From the NCBI GenBank assembly GCA_035519495.1, contig DATIWE010000061.1, positions 1,832 to 65,831 of the forward strand: a DNA stretch of 64,000 nt, read 5' to 3'. A model generated the notes under the pieces. It was not told where the DNA came from, did no database searches, and was given only the letters and a program-made list of their open reading frames with translations. The DNA is from Actinomycetota bacterium (GTDB lineage Bacteria > Actinomycetota > UBA4738 > HRBIN12). Each line of letters begins with the position of its first letter. Positions within the stretch are counted from its first letter, which is position 1. This document shows positions 11,812 to 25,617 of the stretch, in pieces. The position numbers were made by a program, and so were the translations under genes.

Positions 11812-13461
11812 TCAAGCGATCCGGCCGCGGCGCAACGTCACCACCTGATCGACGAGGTCGAGGCCCTCGGTGCGGTGCGTGATGAGGAGCACCGAGCGAC
11901 CGTCGCCGGCCGCCAGCGCGTCCGCGATGATCGCGGTCGCGGTGGGCGGATCGAGATGCGCGGTCGGCTCGTCGAGGACCACCACCGGCGCGTCGGCGAG
12001 GAACGTCCGGGCGAGCGCGATCCGGCGGCGCTCACCGCCCGAGACGGCCGCGCCATCCTCCCCCACGAATGTGTGCCAGCCGTCGGGCAAGGACTCGACC
12101 CACTCCCAGATCTTCGCGCGTCGCAGGGCGACCTCGACCGCGGTGTCGTCGGCGCCCGCTCGCGCCAGGCGCACGTTCTCGAGGATCGTGGTCGCGAAGA
12201 GGAAGGCGTCCTGACGATCGAGCGTCACGCGGGACCGGACGTCGTACTGGCTGAGCGACCGGACGTCCGCACCGCCCAACGTCACGCGGCCTTGGTCGGG
12301 ATCGATGAACCGAACGAGCAAGGAGGCAACCGTGCTCTTGCCCGATCCCGACGCCCCCACGAGCGCGATCTTCCGTCCCTGCGGGACCAGGAGATCGACA
12401 TCGCGGAGCGCCCACGATCCCTCGGACGGGTAGGCGAAGTCGACGTCCTCGAGCGCGACCGGCGTGACGGACGGAAGCTCACCGGGCTCGGCCGGCTCGA
12501 GCACCGCCGGTCCTCGCCGGGTTACGTCCAGCAGCCGCTCGCCCGCTGCGAGCGTCTCGCGGAGCTCGAGCGCCGCGGCCGGGAGCGGAGCGACGCACTC
12601 GAACGAGGCCATCGCCAGCAGCGCGACCGATGCCACCAGCACGCGGTTCAATGCTCCGATCTCCGTCGCGTGGACGCAGACGGCGAGGACCCCGACCACG
12701 GTGAGCCAGGTGACGATCACGCTCATCGCCTCGACGACCCCCCCGACGAACGCGCTCCGCCGCCCGCGGCCCGCGAGCTCATCGTCGAGCGCATCGATGC
12801 GTGCGACGGCGTCATGATCGGCGCCCAGGACCAAGAGCTCGGGACCGCCTCGGAGGACGTCGACGAGCTCGGCCGTGAGCTCAGCGCGCACCGCCCCCCG
12901 ACCCCGTGCGGCCCGGCCGCCCGTTGCCACCGCGAGCGCCGGGATGCAGATACCGCCGACCAGCAGGCCGGCCGCGAGGATCGCACCCGCCGCGGGAACG
13001 AACAGCGCCGCGATCACGACCGAGATCACCCCGGCCGCCGCCGCGACGAGCGCCGGCGTGACGCCGCGCAGGAACAGGTTCTGCATCGCGTCGACGTCGC
13101 CCACCATGCGGGCCAGGAGGTCGCCGTGCCGGTAGCCCTCCACGCGGGCCGGGACCTGCGGTTCGAGGGCGCGGAAGAACGTGCCGCGCAGACGCGCGAG
13201 CACCCGGAACGCCAGGTCGTGCGACTCGAGCCGGTCGAAGTAGCGAGCGATCGGTCGCCCGATCCCGCACGCACGCACGAGGACCATGGCGACGGTGAGC
13301 TCGAGGATCGGCGGATGCTCGGCGGCGCGCGAGATCACGTAGCCGGCCAGCGACATCAGGCCGACCCCGAGCAGCACCGTCAGGGATCCCAGCGCGACGG
13401 TGAGTGCGACGCGGCCCTTGGGCGGCTTCCCCATCCTGATCAGCTCGGCGAGCGTGCTCAC
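11812..13461 (-). CDS. cydC: Thiol reductant ABC exporter CydC
   Basis: Starts at GTG 13461 overlapping the cydD stop (GTGA). RYFDRLESHDLAFR, Walker A GASGSGKS, SGGERRR signature. Confidence 0.9.
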   Translation of the reverse strand: MSTLAELIRMGKPPKGRVALTVALGSLTVLLGVGLMSLAGYVISRAAEHPPILELTVAMVLVRACGIGRPIARYFDRLESHDLAFRVLARLRGTFFRALEPQVPARVEGYRHGDLLARMVGDVDAMQNLFLRGVTPALVAAAAGVISVVIAALFVPAAGAILAAGLLVGGICIPALAVATGGRAARGRGAVRAELTAELVDVLRGGPELLVLGADHDAVARIDALDDELAGRGRRSAFVGGVVEAMSVIVTWLTVVGVLAVCVHATEIGALNRVLVASVALLAMASFECVAPLPAAALELRETLAAGERLLDVTRRGPAVLEPAEPGELPSVTPVALEDVDFAYPSEGSWALRDVDLLVPQGRKIALVGASGSGKSTVASLLVRFIDPDQGRVTLGGADVRSLSQYDVRSRVTLDRQDAFLFATTILENVRLARAGADDTAVEVALRRAKIWEWVESLPDGWHTFVGEDGAAVSGGERRRIALARTFLADAPVVVLDEPTAHLDPPTATAIIADALAAGDGRSVLLITHRTEGLDLVDQVVTLRRGRIA

Positions 13462-15122
13462 GGCAACATCGCCCGTTCCACCGCCTCGACGGCTTTCCCG
13501 TCCGCGAGCCGGACGACCCGGTCGGCCACGAGCGCCAGCTCGGGGTCGTGCGCGATCAGGAGGACGGCGCGCGAGGGGTCGATCGCCCGGATCGACGTCG
13601 CGATCGTGGCGGCGCTGTCCGCGTCCAGGTTCGCCGTCGGCTCGTCGAGGATGAGCAGCGGGGCCGCGCTCACCAGCGTCCGCGCGAGTGCGAGGCGCCG
13701 CGTCTCCCCCGCCGACAGCTCGCGCCCACCCTCTCCGACCACACTGTCGTAGCCCTCGGGGAGATCCTCGACGACCGACGCGAACCCAGCCCTTTCGGAC
13801 GCATCCCGGATCTCCGCGTCCGATGCTCGCGGGTTCCCGAGCGCGATGTTGTGGCGGACGCTGCCGCGGAAGATCGTCGGCCGTTGCGGCAGCCAGGCGA
13901 CCTGTCGCCTCCAGCGTCTGGGGTCGAGCGTGCCCAGATCCGCGCCGTCCACCACCACGCGTCCTCGGTCGGGGCTGCGCAGACCGAGCAGGAGGGACGC
14001 CACCGTCGACTTCCCGGCGCCGCTCGGACCGACGAGCGCGACCACCTCGCCCCGGTCGATCCGCAGATCGACGCCGCCCAGCACTGGAGCCCCTCGACCC
14101 GGGTTCGCGAGCATCACGTCTTCCAGCCCAACGTTCTGCCACGTGACCGCCGGGGCCGAAGACCCTTCCGCGACGCTCGGCGCCTCGATCAGATCGAAGA
14201 TCCGCTCGGCGGCCGCGAGGCCGTCGGCACTGACGTGGAACTGCGCCGCCAGGCTCCTGAGCGGCGCATAGAGCTCCGGCGTCAACAGCAGGACGGTGAG
14301 GGCGGGCCGAAGCCCGACCTCTCCATCGATCAGCCGCACGCCCAGCGTGACCGCCACGAGCGCGGTGGCCAGCGTGGCCGCCAGGTCCAGCACGGCGCCC
14401 GAGAGGAAGCTGACCCGGAGCGTCTCCATCGTGGTCCGGCGATAGGCTTCGCTCACCGCCTCGATCCGCTCCGCTTGCGCCGCACCCCGGTTGAACGCAC
14501 GGAGCGTCGGCAGGCCTCGCACGACGTCGAGGAAGTGGTTCGACAAGCGCGCGAGCGCGTCCCATCGAGCACGCGTCTTCGCCTCCGTGTACCTGCCGAT
14601 CAGCACCATGAACATCGGGATGAGCGGGAGGGTCACGAGCATGATCACGGCAGACGTCGGATCGATGTCCGCGGTCCACACCAGCACGGCGACCGGCACC
14701 AGCACCGCGAGCACCACCTGCGGGAGGTACCGTCCGAAGTAGGCCTCGAGGCCGTCGACGCCCGCGACGGCCGCCGTCGCCAGCTCACCCGCCTCAACCG
14801 GCTCGTCCGTCGCGGGCGCTGCATGCAGGCGCGAGGAGACGAGTGCCAAGCGGAGCTCTGACATCACCCGCGTCGCGGCGAGACGTCCGGTCGTCTCGAA
14901 CGCTCCCGCCAGGAGGCCGCGGACCACCACCACGGTGGCGAACAGCACGAGCGCGCGAGCCGGGAACGGCCGGCCGTCGAACGCGCGCGTGACGATCAGC
15001 GCGAACAGCGTCGCCTGGACGAGGAGCAGGACCGTCGCGAGGAACCCGAAGCAGATGTCGGCGACGAGCGTGCTTCGGACCGCGCCGGCACGGCGCAGCA
15101 ACCGGGGATCGAACGGGTGCAC
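13458..15122 (-). CDS. cydD: Thiol reductant ABC exporter CydD
   Basis: YFGRYLPQ, FLDVVRGLPTL, LLLTPELYAPLR, GPSGAGKS. Directly downstream of cydB. Confidence 0.92.
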   Translation of the reverse strand: MHPFDPRLLRRAGAVRSTLVADICFGFLATVLLLVQATLFALIVTRAFDGRPFPARALVLFATVVVVRGLLAGAFETTGRLAATRVMSELRLALVSSRLHAAPATDEPVEAGELATAAVAGVDGLEAYFGRYLPQVVLAVLVPVAVLVWTADIDPTSAVIMLVTLPLIPMFMVLIGRYTEAKTRARWDALARLSNHFLDVVRGLPTLRAFNRGAAQAERIEAVSEAYRRTTMETLRVSFLSGAVLDLAATLATALVAVTLGVRLIDGEVGLRPALTVLLLTPELYAPLRSLAAQFHVSADGLAAAERIFDLIEAPSVAEGSSAPAVTWQNVGLEDVMLANPGRGAPVLGGVDLRIDRGEVVALVGPSGAGKSTVASLLLGLRSPDRGRVVVDGADLGTLDPRRWRRQVAWLPQRPTIFRGSVRHNIALGNPRASDAEIRDASERAGFASVVEDLPEGYDSVVGEGGRELSAGETRRLALARTLVSAAPLLILDEPTANLDADSAATIATSIRAIDPSRAVLLIAHDPELALVADRVVRLADGKAVEAVERAMLP

Positions 15123-15126
15123 GGCC

Positions 15127-16146
15127 TCAGTGCGCCGCAGGCTCGGCTGCGGGTTCGAAGTCCGAGGTCCCGATCCGCTTGCGGAACACGTGGTACGTCC
15201 ACGCCTGGTAGATCAGCACGATCGGCAGGAAGATCACCGCGACCACGGTCATCACCTTCAACGCGTACGGCGACGACGAAGCGTTCGTGACCGTCAGGTT
15301 GTACGCGGCGTTCGTGCTGGACACCATGACGTTGGGATAGAGGTCGATGAAGATCGACAGAACGGTGGCGCCCATCGCGAACGTGGTCATCGTGAACGCC
15401 CATCCCTCCCGACGATCGCTCAGCAACCAGCCGGCTCCGAAGATCGCGAGCACCGCCGCGGTCGACAGCAGATCAGGGAAGGCGCCGTGGTGGATCGTGA
15501 CCTGCGTCCAGATGCCGAAGATCAGCACCGCGATCCCGGTCGCGAGCGTCTGGGTCCGGGCGATGCGGTGGGCGCGGTCGCTGAGATCGCCCGTGGTCTT
15601 CAGCGACAGGAACGTCGCGCCGTGGAGGAGACACAGCGAGACGAACGTGAGGCCGGCGAAGATGGAGTACGGACTGAGGAGGTCCCAGAACGTCCCCGTG
15701 TACTCCTGGTTCGCGTCGATGGGGAGGCCGTGCAGCAGGTCCGCGAGCGCGACCCCGATCAGGAAGGGCGCCAACAAGCTGCCGAACGTGAGCGCGAGCC
15801 CCCACCCCCGACGCCACCGGTCGCTCTCGCGCTTGCCCCGGAACTCGAACGAGACGCCCCGCCCGATCAGCGCGACGAGCAGGAGCACCATCGCGAGGTA
15901 CAGGCCCGAGAACATCGTCGCGTACCAGGGCGGGAACGCCGCGAAGATCGCCGCGCCGGCCGTGATCAGCCACACCTCGTTGCCGTCCCAGAACGGCCCG
16001 ATCGTGTTGATCAGTGCACGACGCTCCACGTCGTCCTTGCCGATCACGGAGTGCAGCATGCCGACGCCGAAGTCGAACCCCTCCAGCACGAAGAACCCGG
16101 TCCACAGGACCGCGATCGCGATGAACCAGAACACCTGGAGTCCCAT
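15127..16146 (-). CDS. cydB: Cytochrome bd ubiquinol oxidase subunit II
   Basis: LEGFDFGVG and IGPFWDGNEVWLI motifs. Confidence 0.96.
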   Translation of the reverse strand: MGLQVFWFIAIAVLWTGFFVLEGFDFGVGMLHSVIGKDDVERRALINTIGPFWDGNEVWLITAGAAIFAAFPPWYATMFSGLYLAMVLLLVALIGRGVSFEFRGKRESDRWRRGWGLALTFGSLLAPFLIGVALADLLHGLPIDANQEYTGTFWDLLSPYSIFAGLTFVSLCLLHGATFLSLKTTGDLSDRAHRIARTQTLATGIAVLIFGIWTQVTIHHGAFPDLLSTAAVLAIFGAGWLLSDRREGWAFTMTTFAMGATVLSIFIDLYPNVMVSSTNAAYNLTVTNASSSPYALKVMTVVAVIFLPIVLIYQAWTYHVFRKRIGTSDFEPAAEPAAH

Positions 16147-16156
16147 CCTGTCGCTC

Positions 16157-17548
16157 CTAGTAGGTCATCGCCGCGGCCTCCGACGCGCCGCTCTCGCCCA
16201 ACTCCGGCGCAGGTTCGATCTCCTTGCGCCCGAAGCGGAACATCAGTGTCCAGCACAGGATCGCCAGCCCCGCGTACAGGAGCACGAAGATCGTCAAGCT
16301 GATCCAGATCATCGTGGTGCTCACCGACGCAGACACGCCCTGGCTCGTGGTCTGCAACCCCTGCACGATCCACGGCTGTCGCCCGTTCTCGGTCAGCATC
16401 CAGCCAGCGGTATTGATCAGGAACGGGAGGATGACCGCCCACGGAGCCACGAGCAGGAACCACTTCGCCGTGCGGAGTTTCTTCCTCCGGACGAGCCAGA
16501 GACCCCAGGCAGCGAAGAGGAACACGATGCAGCCGAGGTAGGCCATGACCCGCATCGACCAGTACTGGATGAACACGTTCGGGATGTAGCTGAAGTCACC
16601 GCCGTACTGCTGCTGGTATTGCTGGTTGAGCTCGTTGAGACCGACCACCTGCCCGTCCCACGAGTCATCCGCAAGGAGCGACAGCAGGTGCGGGATCGCG
16701 AGGATCTTCGTCGGCGTCTCGTCGTTCTTCCCCCCGCCGATCTGGAAGACCGAGAACGAGCACGGCTGGCAGGTCTGCCACTGCGCCTCCATCGCCGAGA
16801 CCTTCATCGGTTGGTAGGTGGTCTCGATCACGCCGAGATGGCTCCCGACCAGCAGCGCGAACAGGATCGCCGGCAGCAGCACGGTCAGTGACAGCCTGGC
16901 CGTCCGATCGAACGCCTCGGGCTGCGAGCCGCGACGGAGGTGCCAGGTGGAGACGGCCAGCATCAGAACGCTGCCGGTGACCAGCGAGGCCAAGAGCACG
17001 TGGAGGTACCCCCACAGGAAGACCGGGTTCGTGAGCACGGCCCAGATGTTCGTGAGCTCGGCCCTGCCGTTGTTGAGGGTGTAGCCGACAGGGTGCTGCA
17101 TCCACGAGTTCGCGGCCATGATGAACGCGGCGGACAGCGCCGCCCCGAACGCCACGAGCCAGATCGTGGCCAGGTGGACCCGTTCGGGCAACCTGCCCCA
17201 TCCGAACAACCATAGGCCGAGGAAGGTCGACTCCAGGAAGAACGCCGCGAGTCCCTCCATCGCGAGCGGCGCGCCGAACACGTCACCTACGAACTTCGAG
17301 TACGCCGACCAGTTCATGCCGAACTGGAACTCCTGCACGAGTCCCGTCACGACGCCGACCGCGATGTTGATCACGAGGAGCGCGCCGAAGAAACGAGTCA
17401 GCCGAAGGTACTCGTCGTCACGCTTCCGGTACCAAGTCGTCTGGAGTAAGGCAACCAGGAAGGCCAGCCCGATGGTCACGGGAACGAACAGGAAGTGGTA
17501 GATGCTGGTCGTTGCGAACTGGAGCCGGGCCAGATCCAGGTTCGTCAC
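16157..17548 (-). CDS. cydA: Cytochrome bd ubiquinol oxidase subunit I
   Basis: YHFLFVP, GLVQEFQFGMNW, FFLEST, QPMK and GWMLTENGRQPW motifs. RBS GGGAGG. Confidence 0.96.
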   Translation of the reverse strand: MTNLDLARLQFATTSIYHFLFVPVTIGLAFLVALLQTTWYRKRDDEYLRLTRFFGALLVINIAVGVVTGLVQEFQFGMNWSAYSKFVGDVFGAPLAMEGLAAFFLESTFLGLWLFGWGRLPERVHLATIWLVAFGAALSAAFIMAANSWMQHPVGYTLNNGRAELTNIWAVLTNPVFLWGYLHVLLASLVTGSVLMLAVSTWHLRRGSQPEAFDRTARLSLTVLLPAILFALLVGSHLGVIETTYQPMKVSAMEAQWQTCQPCSFSVFQIGGGKNDETPTKILAIPHLLSLLADDSWDGQVVGLNELNQQYQQQYGGDFSYIPNVFIQYWSMRVMAYLGCIVFLFAAWGLWLVRRKKLRTAKWFLLVAPWAVILPFLINTAGWMLTENGRQPWIVQGLQTTSQGVSASVSTTMIWISLTIFVLLYAGLAILCWTLMFRFGRKEIEPAPELGESGASEAAAMTY

Positions 17549-19330: not shown

Positions 19331-21259
19331 CTACACGCCCGCCGCCGCCCGGACCGCGTCGAGCGACCCCGGGTTCTCCACGCTCGAGAGGTCGCCGGGA
19401 TCCTCGCCGAGGGCAGCCGCCCGGATCGCGCGCCGCACGATCTTCGCGCTCCGCGTCTTCGGCAGCTCGGACACGAACACGACCCTGGCCGGCGTGAACG
19501 ACTTGCCGAGGTGCGCCGCGACCAGCGCGCGGAGTTCCTCGGCCGTCACCTGTGCGCCCGGCGCGCGCACGACGAAGCACCAGACCTGCTCGCCCTTGAC
19601 CGGATCGGGCACGCCGACCGCGGCCGACTCGGCTACGCCGGGATCGGACGCGAGCGCCGACTCGAGCTCGGCCGGACCGATGCGCTTCCCCGCGATGTTC
19701 AGCGTGTCGTCGCTGCGGCCGCGCAGGAACCAGAAGCCGTCCCGGTCGCGGATCGCCCAATCGCCGTGGACCCAGACCCCCGGCCACCGGCGCCAGTACG
19801 TGTCGAGGTACCGCTCGGGATCGCCCCAGATGCCGCGCGTCATCGACGGCCACGGCTGCGTACAGACCAGTTCGCCGACCTCGTCCGGGCCCGCGGGGGT
19901 GCCGTCGGGTCGCCAGACGTCCACGTCCATCCCGAGCGCCGGTCCGCGGAGCGTGCACGGCTTCAGCTCGGTGATCGGCAGCGGGGACAGGAAGCACGCG
20001 CCGATCTCGGTCCCGCCCGACAGGTTGATGATCGGACGGCGTCGCTCGCCCACATCGTCGAAGAGCCACCGGTACGACGCCGGGTCCCAAGGCTCGCCGG
20101 TCGCGGCGAGGATCCGCAACGTGGACAGGTCGTGTGCCCGCACCGGTCCCGTCCCGTCGGCGATGAGGGCTCGGATCAGCGTCGGCGAAACGCCGAGCGT
20201 CGTGACGCCGTGTCGCTCGACCAGGTCCCAGAGGCGATCCGGCCCGGGATGGGTGGGGGCTCCTTCGAACAGGAGCACGGTCGAGCCGAGCGCGAGCGCG
20301 CCGACGACCTCCCACGGCCCCATGATCCAGCCGAGGTCCGTCGCCCAGTGCAGGACCTCGCCCACGTGCAGGTCCACCTGGTAGGCGACCTCCTCCGCGA
20401 TCTTCACGAGGAAGCCGCCGTGGACGTGCACCACGCCTTTCGGCGTGCCCGTCGTCCCGCTCGTGTAGCCGATGAACAACGGCTGCTCCGCATCGAACGG
20501 CTCGGCGTCGAGCGGCGCGTCGTCGTCGAACCCGGACCAGTCGACGTCGCGCCCGGGATCCCACGGGGTCGCGACGTCCGGCAGGCGGCGCCACACCACG
20601 ATCCGCTCGACGCAGCCGGCGAGCTCGGCGGCCCGGTCGGCCGTCTCCTTCATGGGCACGGACTTCCCTTTGCGGAGCGACGCGTTCGCGGTCAGGAGCA
20701 CGCTCGCACCCGCGTCCGCCAGCCGCGCGCCGACCGCGTCGGCGCCGAACCCGCTGAAGATCGGCACCCAGATCGCGCCGAGCTTCGAGCACGCCATCAC
20801 GGCGGCGACCGTCTCCGGCGCCATCGGCAGGAAGATGCCGACCGTCGAGGAGGCGCGGACGCCGAGCGCCTGCAGCCCGCGGGCGAGCCGGTCGGTCTCC
20901 CGACGGAGCTCCGCGTACGTCCACACCCGGACCTCGCCGTCCTCGCCCTCCCACCGCACCGCGGTTGCGTCGGGGGTGCGGGCGGACCACCGGTCCACGC
21001 ACTGACCGGCGAGGTTGAGCGTGCCGCCGCGGAACCAGGTCGTCCACTCGACGCCGGCGCTCGTGTCGAGCACCTCGTCGTACGGGTCGACGAACCCGAT
21101 GTCGAGGTCGCGCACGACCGCGTCCCAGAACCACGCGATGTCCTCGATCGAGCGTCGCACCAGCTCGTCGTACGTGCCGATCCCGTGGGCCCGCATGAAG
21201 CGCGTGACGTTCGCGCGATCGACGTACGCCGCCGTCGGGGACCAGACCACGTCCTGCAC
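19331..21259 (-). CDS. AMP-forming acyl-CoA synthetase (acetate-CoA ligase-like)
   Basis: YTSGTTGTPKG, GGTE, GRSDDTLNIAGKRIG and LPKTRSAKIVRR motifs. Leaderless start. Confidence 0.9.
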   Translation of the reverse strand: MQDVVWSPTAAYVDRANVTRFMRAHGIGTYDELVRRSIEDIAWFWDAVVRDLDIGFVDPYDEVLDTSAGVEWTTWFRGGTLNLAGQCVDRWSARTPDATAVRWEGEDGEVRVWTYAELRRETDRLARGLQALGVRASSTVGIFLPMAPETVAAVMACSKLGAIWVPIFSGFGADAVGARLADAGASVLLTANASLRKGKSVPMKETADRAAELAGCVERIVVWRRLPDVATPWDPGRDVDWSGFDDDAPLDAEPFDAEQPLFIGYTSGTTGTPKGVVHVHGGFLVKIAEEVAYQVDLHVGEVLHWATDLGWIMGPWEVVGALALGSTVLLFEGAPTHPGPDRLWDLVERHGVTTLGVSPTLIRALIADGTGPVRAHDLSTLRILAATGEPWDPASYRWLFDDVGERRRPIINLSGGTEIGACFLSPLPITELKPCTLRGPALGMDVDVWRPDGTPAGPDEVGELVCTQPWPSMTRGIWGDPERYLDTYWRRWPGVWVHGDWAIRDRDGFWFLRGRSDDTLNIAGKRIGPAELESALASDPGVAESAAVGVPDPVKGEQVWCFVVRAPGAQVTAEELRALVAAHLGKSFTPARVVFVSELPKTRSAKIVRRAIRAAALGEDPGDLSSVENPGSLDAVRAAAGV

Positions 21260-21265
21260 GGGGGC

Positions 21266-21275
21266 ATGGTAGAAC
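21266..21275. promoter_or_regulatory. Overlapping divergent -10 elements (acyl-CoA synthetase / thiolase operon)
   Basis: ATGGTAGAAC: TACCAT on minus, 6 nt before GTG 21259; TAGAAC on plus, 7 nt before ATG 21283. Confidence 0.5.
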
Positions 21276-21282
21276 CCTCACG

Positions 21283-22344
21283 ATGGGCCCGCGGATCGGC
21301 ATCGTCGGCGTGGGGTGGTCGGGCTTCCGGCCCACGACCGCGGGACGCAGCTACAAGGAGCTCATGTTCGAGGCCGCCACCGCGGCCTACGTGGATGCCG
21401 GCGTCGACCCGAGGACCGACGTCGACTCGTTCGTATGTGCCTCCGAGGACGTCGAAGAGGGCACGAGCATCTTCGACGAGTACGTCCCCGACCAGCTCGG
21501 GGGGGTCCAGCGGCCGGTGCACACGGTCGCCGCCGACGGCCTGTTCGCGCTCGCGACCGCGGCCATGCTGCTCCGCAGCGGGATCGCGAACGTCGTCGCG
21601 GTCGAGGCGCACTCGAAGGCCTCCGACGTCCTCACGCCCGGCCGCGTCGACGCGTTCGCGATGGATCCCGTGCTGAACCGCCCGCTCGGCGTGCCCGCGC
21701 TCGCGCTCGCGGGCCTCGAGATGCGCCGGTTCCTGCACGAGACCGGCCGCAGCGTCGAGGACTGCGCCGCGGTGGCGGTCCGCAACCGGGAGCACGCCCG
21801 GTCGAACCGGCGCGCGTCCTACGCGGACGCGCCGCCGGATCCGACGCCCTTGTTCGATCCGCTCATCGCCGATCAGGCCGCCCGCAGCGCGGACGGCTGC
21901 ATCGTCGTGGTGCTGGCCGGAGCGCAGACCCGAGCCGACGCCTCGGTCTGGGTCGACGGCGTCGGCTGGAGCCAGGACGCGCCGTCGATCGAGAGCCGCG
22001 ACTGGGCGCGCGCGGTCGCCACCGAACGGGCGGCCGAGGGCGCATACGCGCAGGCCGATCTCGCGCAGGCCGACGTCGATCTGGCGGAGGTCGACGACGC
22101 GTTCGCGTACAAGCAACTGCAGCACCTCGACGCGCTCGGGCTTGCCTCGATCGATCCCGGACGGGTCAATCGCTCGGGCGGCGCGCTCGGCGAGGGCCAT
22201 CTCCACGAGGCGAACGGCCTCGCCCGGACGTTGGGCGCCGTCGAGCAGCTGCGCGCGGGTGCGGCCCGCACCGCGGTCGTCCAATCCTGGCGAGGCGTGC
22301 CCAGCACGAGCGCGGCCGTGGCGGTCCTTCGGGCGGCCGGGTGA
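21283..22344 (+). CDS. Thiolase-fold protein (SCP2/Ltp2-like), lacking the catalytic Cys
   Basis: IGIVGVGWS, ADGCIVVVL, EVDDAF and VNRSGGALGEGH motifs. VAADG stands where thiolases have CASG. Confidence 0.8.
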   Translation: MGPRIGIVGVGWSGFRPTTAGRSYKELMFEAATAAYVDAGVDPRTDVDSFVCASEDVEEGTSIFDEYVPDQLGGVQRPVHTVAADGLFALATAAMLLRSGIANVVAVEAHSKASDVLTPGRVDAFAMDPVLNRPLGVPALALAGLEMRRFLHETGRSVEDCAAVAVRNREHARSNRRASYADAPPDPTPLFDPLIADQAARSADGCIVVVLAGAQTRADASVWVDGVGWSQDAPSIESRDWARAVATERAAEGAYAQADLAQADVDLAEVDDAFAYKQLQHLDALGLASIDPGRVNRSGGALGEGHLHEANGLARTLGAVEQLRAGAARTAVVQSWRGVPSTSAAVAVLRAAG

Positions 22345-24047
22345 CGGGGCGCAGGGTCGCGGTGGTCGGCGCCGGGATGACCCGGTTCGTCCGCCGCGCG
22401 CAGGAGACCGGCAAGGAGCTCGCCTTCCAGGCCTCGAAGGCCGCTCTCGACGCGGCGGAGCTCCGGCTCGCCGACGTCGACGCCGTCTGCCTCACGAGCG
22501 CGCCCGACGCGTTCGACGGCGTGCACCGCAAGGGCGATTATCTCGCCGATGGCGCCGGCGCCTGGGGCAAGCCGTTCATCCGCACCTACGTCGGCGGCGG
22601 CAGCGGCGTCTTCACGGCGATCCAGGGGTGGTACACGGTCGCCTCCGGCCAGGCCGACGTCGTGCTGTGCGTCGCCGAGGAGAAGATGTCCTCCTGCCAG
22701 CCGCACCCGCAGGGCGCGTTCCTCACGATCTTCGACAACATCATCGAACGCCCGCTCGGGCCGAACCTCCTGTGGATCTTCGCGCTGGAGATGCAGCGCT
22801 ACATGGACCGCTACGGCCTGGACAAGCGGGACATCGCGAGCGTGGCGGTGAAGAACAAGCGCAACGCAGCCGGGCATCCCGCGGCGTTGCTCGGCCAGGC
22901 GGACATCACCGTCGAGGACGTCCTCGCCTCCGAGGTGCTCGCGTGGCCGGTGCAGCGCCTCGACGTCTCGCCGATCAGCGACGGCGCGGTCGCGCTCGTG
23001 CTGGCGTCGGAGGACGCGGCGCGGCGCCTCACCGATCGCCCGGTCTGGGTCCAGGGGGTCGGGTGGAACCTCGACTCGACGTACTGGACGAACCGCGACC
23101 TCGTCTATCCCGAGTACGTCGAGAACGCCGCGCGCATGGCGTACGCGATGGCCGGCGTCACCGAGCCACGCAAGCAGATCCACGTCGCCGAGCCGTACGA
23201 CCCGTTCGACTACAAGGAGCTGCACCACCTCGAGGGCCTCCTGTTGTTCGACAAGGGGAAGGCGCCGGAAGCAGCTGCGGCCGGCGTCACGGCGCGCGAC
23301 GGCGACCTCCCGTGCTGCCCGAGCGGCGGCCTGCTCGGGGTCGGCAACCCGATCGCCGCCGCCGGGTTGATGAAGATCGCCGAGCTCTTCTGGCAGCTGC
23401 GCGGCGAGGCCGGCGAGCGCCAGGTGCCCGGGACGCCGGAACGCGGCGTGGCGCAGGCGTGGGGCGACCTCATGCAGGTCGGCACGGTGGTCGTGATGGG
23501 GACGGAAGACGCCCGGACGGACGCCGCCGGCGCGACGGCGGACCAACCCGCGACGATGCTCGGGCCGACGCCGCTGTCCGACGCCGCGTTCCGGGCCGCC
23601 GCGGGCGCCGTCGAGACGGACCTCGACGTCCGCTACGCGTGGGACCCCGGCGAGGTGATGGGCGCGTTCCTGGACGCGCTCCGCGAGGGCAGGATCCTCG
23701 CGACGATCTGCACCGCGTGCGGGCGGACGCTCGTGCCGCCGCGCGCGTTCTGCGAACGGTGCTTCCGGCCGACCGACGGATGGACCGAGGTCGCGGCGAC
23801 CGGCACCGTCGAGACCTTCTCGATCTGCCACGTCACGTGGGACATGCGACCGCTCGAGGTGCCCGAGCTGCCGGCCGTGATCCGGCTGGAGGGCTCGAGC
23901 GACGGCGGGTTCCTGCACAAGCTCGGCGACGTCGAACCGTCCGCGATCCGCATCGGGATGCCGGTCGAGGCGGTGTGGCGACCGATCGCGGAGCGCACCG
24001 GCTCGATCCTCGACATCGCGCACTTCCGCCCCAGGGAGACGGCGTGA
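22341..24047 (+). CDS. Thiolase-fold protein fused to a C-terminal DUF35 (Zn-ribbon/OB-fold) domain
   Basis: GTG overlaps the previous stop. VAVVGAGMT, SPISDGA, YDPF, PSGGLLG, then in frame CTAC-x10-CERC plus an OB-fold. Confidence 0.85.
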   Translation: MTGRRVAVVGAGMTRFVRRAQETGKELAFQASKAALDAAELRLADVDAVCLTSAPDAFDGVHRKGDYLADGAGAWGKPFIRTYVGGGSGVFTAIQGWYTVASGQADVVLCVAEEKMSSCQPHPQGAFLTIFDNIIERPLGPNLLWIFALEMQRYMDRYGLDKRDIASVAVKNKRNAAGHPAALLGQADITVEDVLASEVLAWPVQRLDVSPISDGAVALVLASEDAARRLTDRPVWVQGVGWNLDSTYWTNRDLVYPEYVENAARMAYAMAGVTEPRKQIHVAEPYDPFDYKELHHLEGLLLFDKGKAPEAAAAGVTARDGDLPCCPSGGLLGVGNPIAAAGLMKIAELFWQLRGEAGERQVPGTPERGVAQAWGDLMQVGTVVVMGTEDARTDAAGATADQPATMLGPTPLSDAAFRAAAGAVETDLDVRYAWDPGEVMGAFLDALREGRILATICTACGRTLVPPRAFCERCFRPTDGWTEVAATGTVETFSICHVTWDMRPLEVPELPAVIRLEGSSDGGFLHKLGDVEPSAIRIGMPVEAVWRPIAERTGSILDIAHFRPRETA

Positions 24048-24469
24048 GCATCCGACGGATCGAGGGCGGGATGCCCGTGTCCTTCCGGTACACACCCGGG
24101 GTCGGCAACACCGCGTTCTTCGAGGCGCTCCGCGATCGCGGCGTGTTCCTCGGCTCGCGCTGCGCCGACTGCGCCGTGACGTACCTGCCCGCCCGGATCT
24201 TCTGCGAACGCTGCTTCGCGAGCCTCACCCCGGACATCGAGTGCGGACCCGAGGGGGTCGTCGTGTCCTGGACCGTCGCGCACGTCGGGATCGACGGCGA
24301 GCGGCTCGATCCGGCGGTGACCTACTGCCTGGTGCAGCTCGACGGCGCCGACTCGGTCCTGCTCCATCGCCTGCTGGGTCAGGCGGACATCGGCGCGCGC
24401 GTCCGGGCGATGCTGTCGGAAGACCGCACCGGGGCGATCGGCGATCTCCAGGGGTTCGCGCCCGCATGA
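24044..24469 (+). CDS. DUF35 Zn-ribbon/OB-fold protein
   Basis: CADC-x10-CERC, G.VVSWTV, overlapping GTGA start. Confidence 0.85.
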   Translation: MSIRRIEGGMPVSFRYTPGVGNTAFFEALRDRGVFLGSRCADCAVTYLPARIFCERCFASLTPDIECGPEGVVVSWTVAHVGIDGERLDPAVTYCLVQLDGADSVLLHRLLGQADIGARVRAMLSEDRTGAIGDLQGFAPA

Positions 24470-25617
24470 ACTTCGATCTCACCGACGAGCAGGAGCAGAT
24501 GCGGGCGCTCGTGCGGGAGTTCGCGGATGAGGTCGTGGCGCCCGGCGCCGCCGAGCGCGACGAGCACGAGACTTTCCCGCTCGAGATCGTGCGCGCCATG
24601 GGGGAGATCGGGCTGTTCGCGGTGCCGCTCCCCCCCGAGTACGGCGGTCTGGGCGCGGACGCGGTGACGTGGGCCCTCGTGATGGAGGAGCTCGGCCGGG
24701 TGGACTCGAGCGTCGCCGTGACGCTGTCGGTGGCCTCGGGCCTCGCGGCCGGCATGATCGCGCGGCACGGGACCGCCGAGCAGAAGCAGCGGTGGCTGCC
24801 GCGGGTCGCCGCCGGCGAGATCCTCGGCAGCTTCGGGCTCACCGAGCCCTCCGGCGGCTCCGACGTACGCGCCCTGCGCACGACCGCGCGCCTGGCCGAC
24901 GGCGCCTGGACGATCGACGGCTCGAAGTCCTTCATCACGAACAGCGGCACGCCGATCTCCGGGTTCGTCGTCGTCGCCTGCCGCACGGACGACCCGCCGC
25001 ACGACGTCTCGACCCTGATCGTGCCGTCGGGAAGCGAGGGCTTCGCGGTCGGCCCGCCGTACCGGAAGATGGGCTGGCGCTCGAGCGACACCCACGAGAT
25101 CTCGTTCCAGGGATGCCGCGTGCCGGAGGATCACCTCCTCGGCGAGCGCGGCCACGGACTCCGCCAATGCCTGTCCTCGCTCGACGACGGGCGGATCGCG
25201 ATCGCCGCGATGTCGGTCGGGCTCGCGCAGGCGTGCCTCGACGCGAGCCTCGCCTACGCGGGCGAGCGCGCGGCGTTCGGTCGCCCGATCGGCGCCTACG
25301 AGGCCGTCGCGTTCCCGATGGCCGACATGCAGGTGGCGATCGCCTCGGCGCGGCTGCTGACGTACCGCGCCGCGTGGCTGAAGGACCAGGGGCGCAGCTA
25401 CGCGGCAGAGGCCGCCGCCGCGAAGCTGTCCGCGAGCATCGTCGCGAACCGGTGCGCGCGCGACGCGGTCCAGATCCACGGCGGCTACGGGTTCACGGAG
25501 GACTTCCCCGTCGCGCGCTACTACCGCGACGCGAAGGTGCTGGAGATCGGCGAGGGGACGAACGAGATCCTCCGCCTGGTCCTCGCGCGGGACCTCGGGC
25601 TCCGGCCCGGGACGTGA
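24466..25617 (+). CDS. Acyl-CoA dehydrogenase
   Basis: SFGLTEPSGGSD, GSKSFITN, VQIHGGYGF and EIGEGTNEI motifs. ATGA overlap. Confidence 0.95.
   Translation: MNFDLTDEQEQMRALVREFADEVVAPGAAERDEHETFPLEIVRAMGEIGLFAVPLPPEYGGLGADAVTWALVMEELGRVDSSVAVTLSVASGLAAGMIARHGTAEQKQRWLPRVAAGEILGSFGLTEPSGGSDVRALRTTARLADGAWTIDGSKSFITNSGTPISGFVVVACRTDDPPHDVSTLIVPSGSEGFAVGPPYRKMGWRSSDTHEISFQGCRVPEDHLLGERGHGLRQCLSSLDDGRIAIAAMSVGLAQACLDASLAYAGERAAFGRPIGAYEAVAFPMADMQVAIASARLLTYRAAWLKDQGRSYAAEAAAAKLSASIVANRCARDAVQIHGGYGFTEDFPVARYYRDAKVLEIGEGTNEILRLVLARDLGLRPGT

Follow-up and report, generated by a model that had tools for sequence, protein, structure and literature searches.

Which reaction would be catalyzed by a pair of thiolase-like proteins that both lack the nucleophilic Cys? 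The question is raised by a locus in a 64,000-nucleotide stretch of DNA from an Actinomycetota bacterium (assembly GCA_035519495.1, contig DATIWE010000061.1), referred to here as the window. Its genes A and B encode thiolase-fold proteins, the second of which is fused to a DUF35 domain (D1); gene C encodes a free-standing DUF35 protein (D2), gene D encodes an acyl-CoA dehydrogenase (ACAD), and an acyl-CoA ligase gene lies on the opposite strand. An earlier interpretation of the letters alone (the sequence-only reading) had proposed a heteromeric enzyme with non-thiolase chemistry, a candidate new acyl-CoA aldolase or transferase complex. Alignments and modeling indicate that A and B kept the thiolase fold but not the thiolase catalytic residues. 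We tentatively favor the reading that the module works without the Cys as a lyase of the retro-aldol type, its substrate being a short acyl-CoA that the ligase and ACAD supply.

Residues were placed by HMMER alignment of A and B to solved thiolases, namely 6esq (M. thermolithotrophicus thiolase), 7yvy (PFC_04095), and BbsB; 7pxp was also used. The position of the nucleophilic Cys (CASG in thiolases) was occupied by Ala83 in A, within VAADG (82-86), and by Gly86 in B, within VGGGSG (84-89). At the HDCF position, A has VDDAF (270-274) and B has YDPF (286-289); at the GHP position, A has GHL (305-307) and B has GNP (335-337), with N336 in place of the His. The sequence-only reading had quoted all of these motifs and the loss of the nucleophile from both proteins, and each motif was found in the protein to which it had been assigned. 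Cys residues occur only at 52, 161, and 206 of A and at 50, 110, 119, 325, and 326 of the thiolase part of B; in the sequence alignment, none lies near the nucleophile elbow of either protein. No Cys stood at the canonical site in B, by sequence or in an AlphaFold model, or in A by sequence.

The residues that replace the catalytic ones in B are strictly conserved. Among 81 orthologues of B, V84-G-G-G87, E284, Y286-D-P-F-D-Y-K-E293, and P327-S-G-G-L-L-G-V-G-N-P-I338 were all invariant, including Gly86 and Tyr286 (81/81 each). These invariant loops (VGGG, EPYDPFDYKE, and PSGGLLGVGNPI) are exactly those that replace the catalytic loops of thiolases. In the segment C326-PSGGLLGVGNPI, the part PSGGLLGVGNPI was invariant, and C326, which stands where the NxxGG signature of thiolases has its conserved Asn, ten residues ahead of the GHP position, was present in 79 of the 81 orthologues, with Ser or Thr in the other two; P0121, a full-length representative in the 50%-identity library, has Ser at this position. 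Such constraint on the active-site loops at 64-93% identity points to a working site rather than decay, and B is the probable main catalytic subunit. Ordinary thiolysis is very unlikely, because the nucleophilic Cys, the His and Cys of HDCF, and, in B, the His of GHP are all replaced, and the replacements in B are invariant across phyla. In this respect the proposal of non-thiolase chemistry held up.

A was conserved in a different manner. Overall identity among its 68 orthologues was 46-80%, below that of B, and two of the former catalytic positions varied (Ala, Gly, or Ser at the nucleophile position; Asn, His, Tyr, Asp, or Ser in place of the GHP His). Sixty-seven residues were invariant, among them an acidic loop, E55-D56..E59-G-T-S-I..D65-E-Y..P69-D-Q (including E66 and D70), as well as H110, K112, E269, D271, D272, and H281. 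We read A as a specialized partner rather than a decayed copy.

An AlphaFold2 model of B built from 115 diverse sequences reached a pLDDT of 90.7 and a pTM of 0.89. In this model, strand 79-82 runs into helix 85-101 to form a classical nucleophile elbow, which bears G85-G86-G87. The predicted docking pose of D1 on the thiolase domain is confident, given the pTM of the two-domain model. A Foldseek search returned DUF35-binding thiolase folds of the SCP2/archaeal type; the best fold matches were ST0096 (4yzo; TM-score 0.91-0.95) and 6et9_C (0.94), with 7yvy also within 0.91-0.95, followed by PhlC (0.90), BbsB (0.89), Ltp2 (0.85), and Sal (0.84). A model from 53 close orthologues (74-87% identical) had a pLDDT of 68 and disordered active-site loops and was discarded; the addition of about 90 distant paralogues lifted the pLDDT to 90.7, and it was the diversity of the alignment, not its depth, that set model quality in this family.

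Relation to Ltp2, Sal, and the Ltp3-Ltp4 loci

We compared the module with other thiolase-fold systems. ST0096, a 'thiolase-like protein' of Sulfolobus tokodaii, was the second-best PDB sequence match of B as well as its best fold match, and is also Cys-less (TSGSG). Unlike B, it keeps HD and GHP, and it branched inside the canonical Cys-thiolase group in our trees. PhlABC and the archaeal thiolase/HMGCS complex resemble the window module in fold subfamily, in having a DUF35 zinc-ribbon/OB partner, and in bringing two different thiolase-superfamily subunits together in one DUF35 complex. In such DUF35-partnered complexes an active-site Cys is present in at least one subunit, whereas in the window it is present in neither.

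Enzymes with a Cys-free thiolase fold have been shown biochemically only for the steroid aldolases Ltp2 and Sal. A Cys-less thiolase-fold aldolase is, as an idea, no longer surprising in itself. TcLtp2 and CtSal have Cys-less SCP2-type folds in which the Tyr of a YDxF/Y motif (YDHF in Ltp2, YDCY in Sal) is the catalytic base and takes the proton of the beta-hydroxyl group; the acid residue is Tyr344 in Ltp2 and the motif Cys304 in Sal, where the former nucleophile position is taken by Gly89 and the position of the GHP His by Gln (PMC12329534). B resembles both in the Gly at the former nucleophile position (Gly86, in a GGG loop) and in the YDxF Tyr (Tyr286). By contrast, A has no such Tyr, with D271 in its place. 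B departs from both at the acid positions, where Pro288 stands in place of Cys304 of Sal and His296 of Ltp2, and Asn336 in place of Tyr344 of Ltp2; neither known proton donor is therefore open to B, and both replacements are invariant. In composition, Ltp2 (TcLtp2, 6ok1) and Sal (CtSal, 9myr) are homodimers with a DUF35 domain donated by a MaoC hydratase, whereas the DUF35 domains of the window are fused to B or free-standing. The systems have in common a DUF35 partner, which is obligatory in Ltp2 and Sal, and an ACAD, which precedes Ltp2 and Sal in their pathway and is encoded in the cassette here.

For maximum-likelihood trees, the orthologues of A and B were combined with 92 sequences that represent the nearest clusters at 50% identity and with seven references transcribed from PDB alignments. 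Ltp2, Sal, and 4u4e formed a clade of their own, outside the Cys-less clade of 102 tips (SH-aLRT 100) in which A and B fell, and B is thus no enzyme of the Ltp2/Sal type. The parallel with Ltp2 drawn in the sequence-only reading survives in the YDxF Tyr of B, but not in the second catalytic residue, which is gone, or in the phylogeny. 4u4e itself, a structural-genomics 'putative thiolase' of Sphaerobacter thermophilus that clusters with Ltp2 and Sal, is Cys-less (AVGGSS) and has YDSF; this protein probably works as an aldolase instead of a thiolase.

Two motif types were found within the Cys-less clade: B-like proteins have xTGGxTG, Tyr at the HDCF position, and NP(I), and A-like proteins have xxDGxxA. 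In one tree, B grouped with Ltp3-like and A with Ltp4-like proteins, as would be expected if A/Ltp4 and B/Ltp3 went back to a single old duplication; in the other, the A and B groups were sisters (SH-aLRT 93). Constraining B-like and Ltp3-like proteins into one clade improved the log-likelihood by 19.2, with a p-AU of 0.67.

Because A matched the NCBIfam model PRK07937 ('lipid-transfer protein') end to end (85 bits), we searched for this family in the phylum. One such locus, L105, encodes a 342-residue protein with two OB_ChsH2_C domains, a 354-residue A-like protein, and a 393-residue B-like protein; the B-like protein of these loci has HTAGSVG, VYVPF, and SSNPI, and a luciferase-like oxidoreductase gene lies alongside. 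Two DUF35 OB domains were also found beside the pair in L106-L111, L115, and L116. The order in M. tuberculosis is Rv3520c, Rv3521 (conserved hypothetical), ltp4, and ltp3, running to Rv3523 (PMC6429209), and the PRK07937 loci match the gene order Rv3520c-Rv3523. Ltp3-Ltp4 has been described in a review as a heteromeric aldol-lyase that takes off the C24 branch of plant sterols (PMC6678751). We found no biochemical or structural study of the window's family or of Ltp3-Ltp4 in the literature, and the paper on SSO2064 gives no detail of the locus. The primary work on Ltp3-Ltp4 is said to be a genetic study of ltp3 and ltp4 of Rhodococcus rhodochrous by Wilbrink in 2012.

Like the window, Ltp3-Ltp4 loci have two adjacent paralogous Cys-less thiolase folds, one short (~353 residues) and one long (~390 residues, compared with ~396 for the B domain), together with two DUF35 OB domains, and cassettes of this type often include an ACAD and a ligase. 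Ltp3-like proteins share with B a GG-type nucleophile loop, Tyr at the HDCF position, and NP(I) in place of GHP. The two systems also differ: B and Ltp3-like proteins are only ~35% identical; the order is DUF35-DUF35-A-B in Ltp3-Ltp4 loci but A-B-DUF35-DUF35 in the window; the N-terminal DUF35 domain of the Rv3521 type lost its zinc Cys residues, whereas both DUF35 domains of the window keep all four; and Ltp3-Ltp4 loci lie among steroid or P450 genes, of which we found none in the context of the window. D1 and D2 gave mixed BLAST scores against the two DUF35 copies of Ltp-type loci, and we claim no one-to-one pairing. The closest known architecture is the double-DUF35/Ltp4/Ltp3 locus, rather than Ltp2, BbsAB, or PhlBC, which the sequence-only reading had cited, and the window module is a distant paralogue of this design in a non-steroid context.

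Several of these loci showed features of their own. The gene at L105:450-1478 (+ strand), like its counterparts in L106-L110, encodes two tandem DUF35 OB domains, the N-terminal copy of which has no zinc-ribbon cysteines (GVRGSDGRVLVPPAEYDP). The paralogous cassettes L115 (G029:C15), L111 (G022:C1), and L116 (G028:C216), from related genomes, have the order AMP-ligase-DUF35-DUF35-Ltp4-like-Ltp3-like-ACAD(-ACAD), followed by a cytochrome P450 gene in one and a short-chain dehydrogenase/reductase gene in another, and no hydratase gene lies inside any of them. Genome G022 had nine matches to B (E <= 1e-20), including a DUF35 match and A-like paralogues.

Distribution of the module and the five-gene cassette

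B scored 623 bits against the NCBIfam model PRK06065, above its cut-off of 455, and A scored 349-352 bits against PRK06066, below its cut-off of 516. Both models describe a 'thiolase domain-containing protein' and are uncharacterized equivalogs with no functional name. Among the 301 Actinomycetota species sampled, 28 (~9%; 23 of 198 genera) had a PRK06065 match over cut-off, in a single copy in each, and both models were over cut-off in a control genome, that of Sulfolobus acidocaldarius. A word-indexed search returned more than 3,600 homologues of B, the best 120 of which were all at least 74% identical. In a collection of species-representative genomes, at least 588 B loci were confirmed; the best 80 of them were all from uncultured metagenome-assembled genomes, nearly all labeled Actinomycetota or Chloroflexota. 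Across these two phyla the thiolase domain of B was 64-93% identical, with the Chloroflexota loci at 64-68%.

The order A-[VOC]-B-D1-D2 was kept in essentially every one of about 100 loci, with D2 always directly after D1. The fusion of B to D1 was limited to the window's own family; elsewhere, in Chloroflexota and other Actinomycetota families, B (385-394 residues), D1, and D2 are separate genes, and in some lineages B-D1-D2 is a single protein of 722-731 residues (P0123, L073). These natural fusions and the strict synteny support a physical four-part complex, in line with the heteromeric enzyme of the sequence-only reading. The claim that the complex is new fared less well: B meets an existing family model, the family is very widespread, and Cys-less pairs of A-like and B-like proteins form a large radiation. 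The module is best described as a variant of the DUF35-associated Cys-less thiolase-fold lyases, and it belongs, as does Ltp3-Ltp4, to a much larger radiation, spread across domains of life, in which Cys-less thiolase folds occur in pairs together with two DUF35 domains. The one name that cluster look-ups returned for the family was the generic 'acetyl-CoA C-acetyltransferase', and the database label acetyl-CoA acetyltransferase is almost certainly wrong for Cys-less pairs.

VOC in this order denotes a glyoxalase-fold gene of 117-121 residues, which about half of the actinobacterial loci carry between A and B (including L008, L030, L060, L090, L092, L095, L100, and L103) and which is absent from the window. 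We considered the VOC protein as a methylmalonyl-CoA epimerase and rejected this assignment, because it had no match to the NCBIfam epimerase model and only generic glyoxalase-family matches. An ACAD gene was found beside the module or within 1-3.5 kb of it in most Actinomycetota loci and several Chloroflexota loci. In several other lineages, the neighbors included genes for acyl-CoA carboxylase alpha, BirA, a bPH_2 protein, an F420-type oxidoreductase, methylmalonyl-CoA mutase, and an adenylate-cyclase/AAA/TPR regulator. Inference of a substrate from these genes was likewise rejected, since they look like lineage synteny and low-GC lineages have unrelated neighbors. In two loci of the same phylum (L087:6037-8283 and L098:6100-8097; G+C 0.48 and 0.60, respectively), the four-gene module has no adjoining ACAD or ligase gene, and two genes by D2 in both resemble, by eye from their N-termini, an alpha/beta-hydrolase and a metallo-beta-lactamase-fold protein.

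The module was present in 7 of 18 congeneric genomes. We located the CN-hydrolase gene, which flanks the module in the window, in four module-negative congeners (G044, G004, G015, and G016) and compared the surrounding DNA. In all four, it directly adjoins yceI-hxlR, and the ligase gene and A, B, C, and D are all missing. As all five genes are absent together at these empty sites, positions 19331-25617 (ligase, A, B-D1, D2, and ACAD) constitute one unit of gain and loss, and this joint presence and absence links the ligase and ACAD, in this lineage, to the function of the thiolase-like module.

The ligase scored below the cut-off of every NCBIfam ACS, PrpE, and acetoacetate-ligase equivalog. 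Its nearest PDB entries are acetate-CoA ligases, and the acetoacetate-CoA ligase 4wd1 matches too. Where acetate-CoA ligases have the acetate-pocket motif DTWWQTETG, it has NLSGGTEIG, and the Trp gate is gone; the second Trp of the former motif closes the acetate pocket (Trp414 in S. enterica Acs). Since this Trp is missing, the substrate of the ligase is expected to be an acid larger than acetate. The ACAD has all three of its Pfam domains and GEGT at 362-365, which we take to be the motif of the catalytic Glu. It scored below the cut-off of all NCBIfam equivalogs, the AcrC type being the best, and its nearest PDB entries are acyl-CoA dehydrogenases of the short-chain type and butyryl-CoA dehydrogenases. 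No hydratase gene was found at 13-33 kb of the window, as the sequence-only reading had noted for this locus. Three crotonase genes lie elsewhere in the genome (88% complete), in which no MaoC_dehydratas match was found.

Candidate reactions

In the reading that we favor, A and B would form a heterodimer of paralogous Cys-less thiolase folds, with D1, assigned to B because it is fused to it, capping B and D2 capping A in an alpha-beta-gamma-delta unit. The ligase would activate an acid larger than acetate, and the short-chain-type ACAD would make the 2-enoyl-CoA, which would then be hydrated by one of the three crotonases encoded elsewhere or by the complex itself. The main active site would lie in B, where Tyr286 would act as the base in a Cys-independent retro-aldol cleavage of the 3-hydroxyacyl-CoA to an aldehyde or ketone and acetyl- or propionyl-CoA. 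We infer the stoichiometry, the lyase chemistry, the role of Tyr286, the class of substrate, and the reaction's direction. In favor of this reading are the replaced catalytic residues of both subunits, the constraint on the site of B, the YDxF Tyr shared with Ltp2 and Sal, the signs of a physical complex, the architecture shared with Ltp3-Ltp4 and the likelihood gained when B-like and Ltp3-like proteins are joined, the five-gene unit, the cassette plan that recurs in related genomes, the missing Trp gate of the ligase, and the short-chain type of the ACAD.

Several observations weigh against this retro-aldol reading. B is without the second catalytic residue of both known aldolases, and a proton donor must be postulated (Cys326, Tyr291, or water). 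A and B lie outside the clade of Ltp2, Sal, and 4u4e, and the model of B is nearer to archaeal thiolases (TM-score 0.94) than to Ltp2 and Sal (0.84-0.85), so the shared Tyr could reflect convergence or coincidence. The aldol-lyase label of Ltp3-Ltp4 comes from genetics only. The invariant residues of A, including its acidic loop, may carry chemistry that an aldolase model ignores, and the same model does not account for the VOC insert in about half of the loci. Moreover, the ACAD and ligase genes are unlinked to the module in low-GC lineages, and neither the cassette nor, for MaoC, the genome supplies a hydratase.

The same scaffold could instead perform other Cys-independent chemistry, such as decarboxylation of (methyl)malonyl-type CoA, aldol- or Claisen-type condensation in the biosynthetic direction, isomerization or hydration of enoyl-CoA, or acyl transfer, which we consider unlikely but deserving of weight. 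The loss in B of the acid residue used by both known aldolases is consistent with such chemistry, as are the VOC protein within many of the operons and the genes for acyl-CoA carboxylase alpha, BirA, and methylmalonyl-CoA mutase that adjoin the module in several lineages; there are also DUF35 complexes that drive condensations, such as archaeal thiolase/HMGCS and archaeal FAS, and TbSLP, a Cys-less relative with YDCF, has weak malonyl-CoA decarboxylase activity (PMC12329534). However, NCBIfam does not identify the VOC protein as a methylmalonyl-CoA epimerase, and the neighborhood of carboxylase and mutase genes, which looks like lineage synteny, is absent at the window. Decarboxylases and condensing enzymes of the thiolase superfamily normally keep a His/His or His/Asn pair, whereas B has Tyr and Asn in its place. 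The cassette, with its ligase and ACAD lost as a unit, looks catabolic and suits cleavage better than synthesis. For acyl transfer in particular, the transferase of the sequence-only reading, there is no evidence specifically in favor.

A bolder version of the lyase, which we regard as improbable, would be a self-contained hydratase-aldolase, in which the ACAD product, an enoyl-CoA, is hydrated by A, and B then cleaves the 3-hydroxyacyl-CoA so formed via Tyr286. Such an enzyme would account for the lack of a hydratase gene in the window cassette and in the paralogous ligase-DUF35-DUF35-A-B-ACAD cassettes, and it agrees with the lack of a MaoC match in the genome and with the 67 invariant residues of A (E55, D56, E59, D65, E66, D70, H110, K112, E269, D271, D272, and H281 among them); in the Ltp2 and Sal systems, moreover, it is DUF35 that tethers the hydratase to the aldolase. 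We know of no thiolase-fold hydratase, however; the acidic residues of A could equally serve an interface or DUF35 binding, and the three crotonase genes can supply hydration. If true, this reading would reveal an unrecognized, self-sufficient Cys-free C-C-cleaving machine in the metabolism of short-chain acyl-CoA and a shortcut in beta-oxidation, independent of thiolase and of NAD, in bacteria and archaea. It would suit, for example, branched or tertiary-alcohol intermediates that cannot be oxidized to a 3-keto ester, and would provide all Ltp3/Ltp4-like pairs of the radiation with a mechanism.

We also doubt that the proteins form a non-catalytic pseudoenzyme assembly that binds acyl-CoA or lipid or serves as a scaffold or regulator. 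The canonical catalytic residues are all gone from both subunits, relatives have the historical name 'lipid-transfer protein', and DUF35 proteins act as scaffolds that can be recruited to unrelated roles, for example in Trf of S. solfataricus (PMC6996347). Against this, the replaced loops of B are its most conserved parts at 64-93% identity across phyla, the genes are translationally coupled to ACAD and lost together with the ligase and ACAD genes, and the Cys-less relatives Ltp2 and Sal are true enzymes. Ordinary thiolases with a relocated nucleophile can be practically set aside: Cys326 of B, a candidate by virtue of its presence in 79 of 81 orthologues at the Asn of the NxxGG signature, is Ser in P0121 and Ser or Thr in the other two orthologues, the elbow Cys is absent from both subunits, B has lost the acid/base Cys and the two His residues as well, and we know of no thiolase whose nucleophile has moved.

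Identification of the substrate would mend a widespread mis-annotation and establish YDPF/Asn/Cys as a new type of active site built on the thiolase scaffold. It could also bring to light a step that is missing from the short-chain acyl-CoA catabolism of uncultured bacteria abundant in soil. The question is directly testable, given the five-gene unit and an archaeon that is genetically tractable and has both subunit families.

Layout of the locus

Genes were called by frame analysis of third-position GC content (GC3) together with the translations of open reading frames; the window is ~70% G+C. The features of the cassette are listed below.

Table 1. Genes and domains of the five-gene cassette, in window coordinates
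Feature	Position	Strand	Details
Acyl-CoA ligase, acetyl-CoA-synthetase family; leftmost cassette gene	19331-21259	-	642 aa; AMP-binding + AMP-binding_C + ACAS_N
Gene A, Cys-less thiolase-fold protein, Ltp4-like ('A-like')	21283-22344	+	353 aa; Pfam Thiolase_C_1 / Thiolase_C
Gene B, whole open reading frame	22341-24047	+	568 aa; Pfam Thiolase_N + Thiolase_C_1 + zf-ChsH2 + OB_ChsH2_C
B, thiolase-fold domain, Cys-less, Ltp3-like ('B-like')	22341-23528	+	residues 1-396
B, linker between thiolase-like domain and DUF35	23529-23639	+	residues 397-433; pLDDT <50 at 397-412 and 420-433
DUF35 domain D1 (Zn ribbon + OB fold), fused to B	23640-24047	+	zf-ChsH2 445-477, OB_ChsH2_C 481-547
Gene C, DUF35 protein D2, free-standing	24044-24469	+	141 aa; Pfam zf-ChsH2 + OB_ChsH2_C
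Gene D, ACAD, short-chain type; rightmost cassette gene	24466-25617	+	383 aa; PF02771, PF02770, PF00441

Both zinc-ribbon DUF35 domains of the sequence-only reading are real, but only the second is a separate gene: D1 has no start codon of its own and is in frame with B, with no stop codon in the linker. The linker is not conserved and is missing where B and DUF35 are separate genes. Both DUF35 Pfam models were over cut-off in B (445-547) and in C, and the zinc CxxC pairs are intact in both domains (CTAC at 457 and CERC at 471 in D1; CADC at 40 and CERC at 54 in D2). D1 matched SSO2064 (3irb), the DUF35 domain of ChsH2 (6ok1_B), and 6esq_E in the PDB.

A, B, C, and D are chained by 4-nt overlaps (GTGA at A/B, GTGA at B/C, and ATGA at C/D), so that the overlapping stop and start codons ahead of ACAD reported earlier were seen again, as was the divergent orientation of the synthetase-family ligase. 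A 23-bp spacer (21260-21282) separates the GTG start of the ligase gene (21259) from the ATG start of A (21283). On the minus strand, a TACCAT hexamer (TANNNT-like) lies 6 nt before the ligase start, and none comparable was obvious for A; its position suggests leaderless, back-to-back transcription.

The left flank of the cassette contains GNAT, CN-hydrolase, cytochrome bd, and CydDC-type genes, and the right flank contains yceI, hxlR, and genes for a class-III aminotransferase, TauE, an amidohydrolase, and a decarboxylase. The cytochrome bd genes (oxidase subunits I and II) form an operon that, together with a CydDC-type ABC transporter, occupies 13458-17548 on the minus strand, upstream of the GNAT and CN-hydrolase genes; it is ordinary and unrelated to the module.

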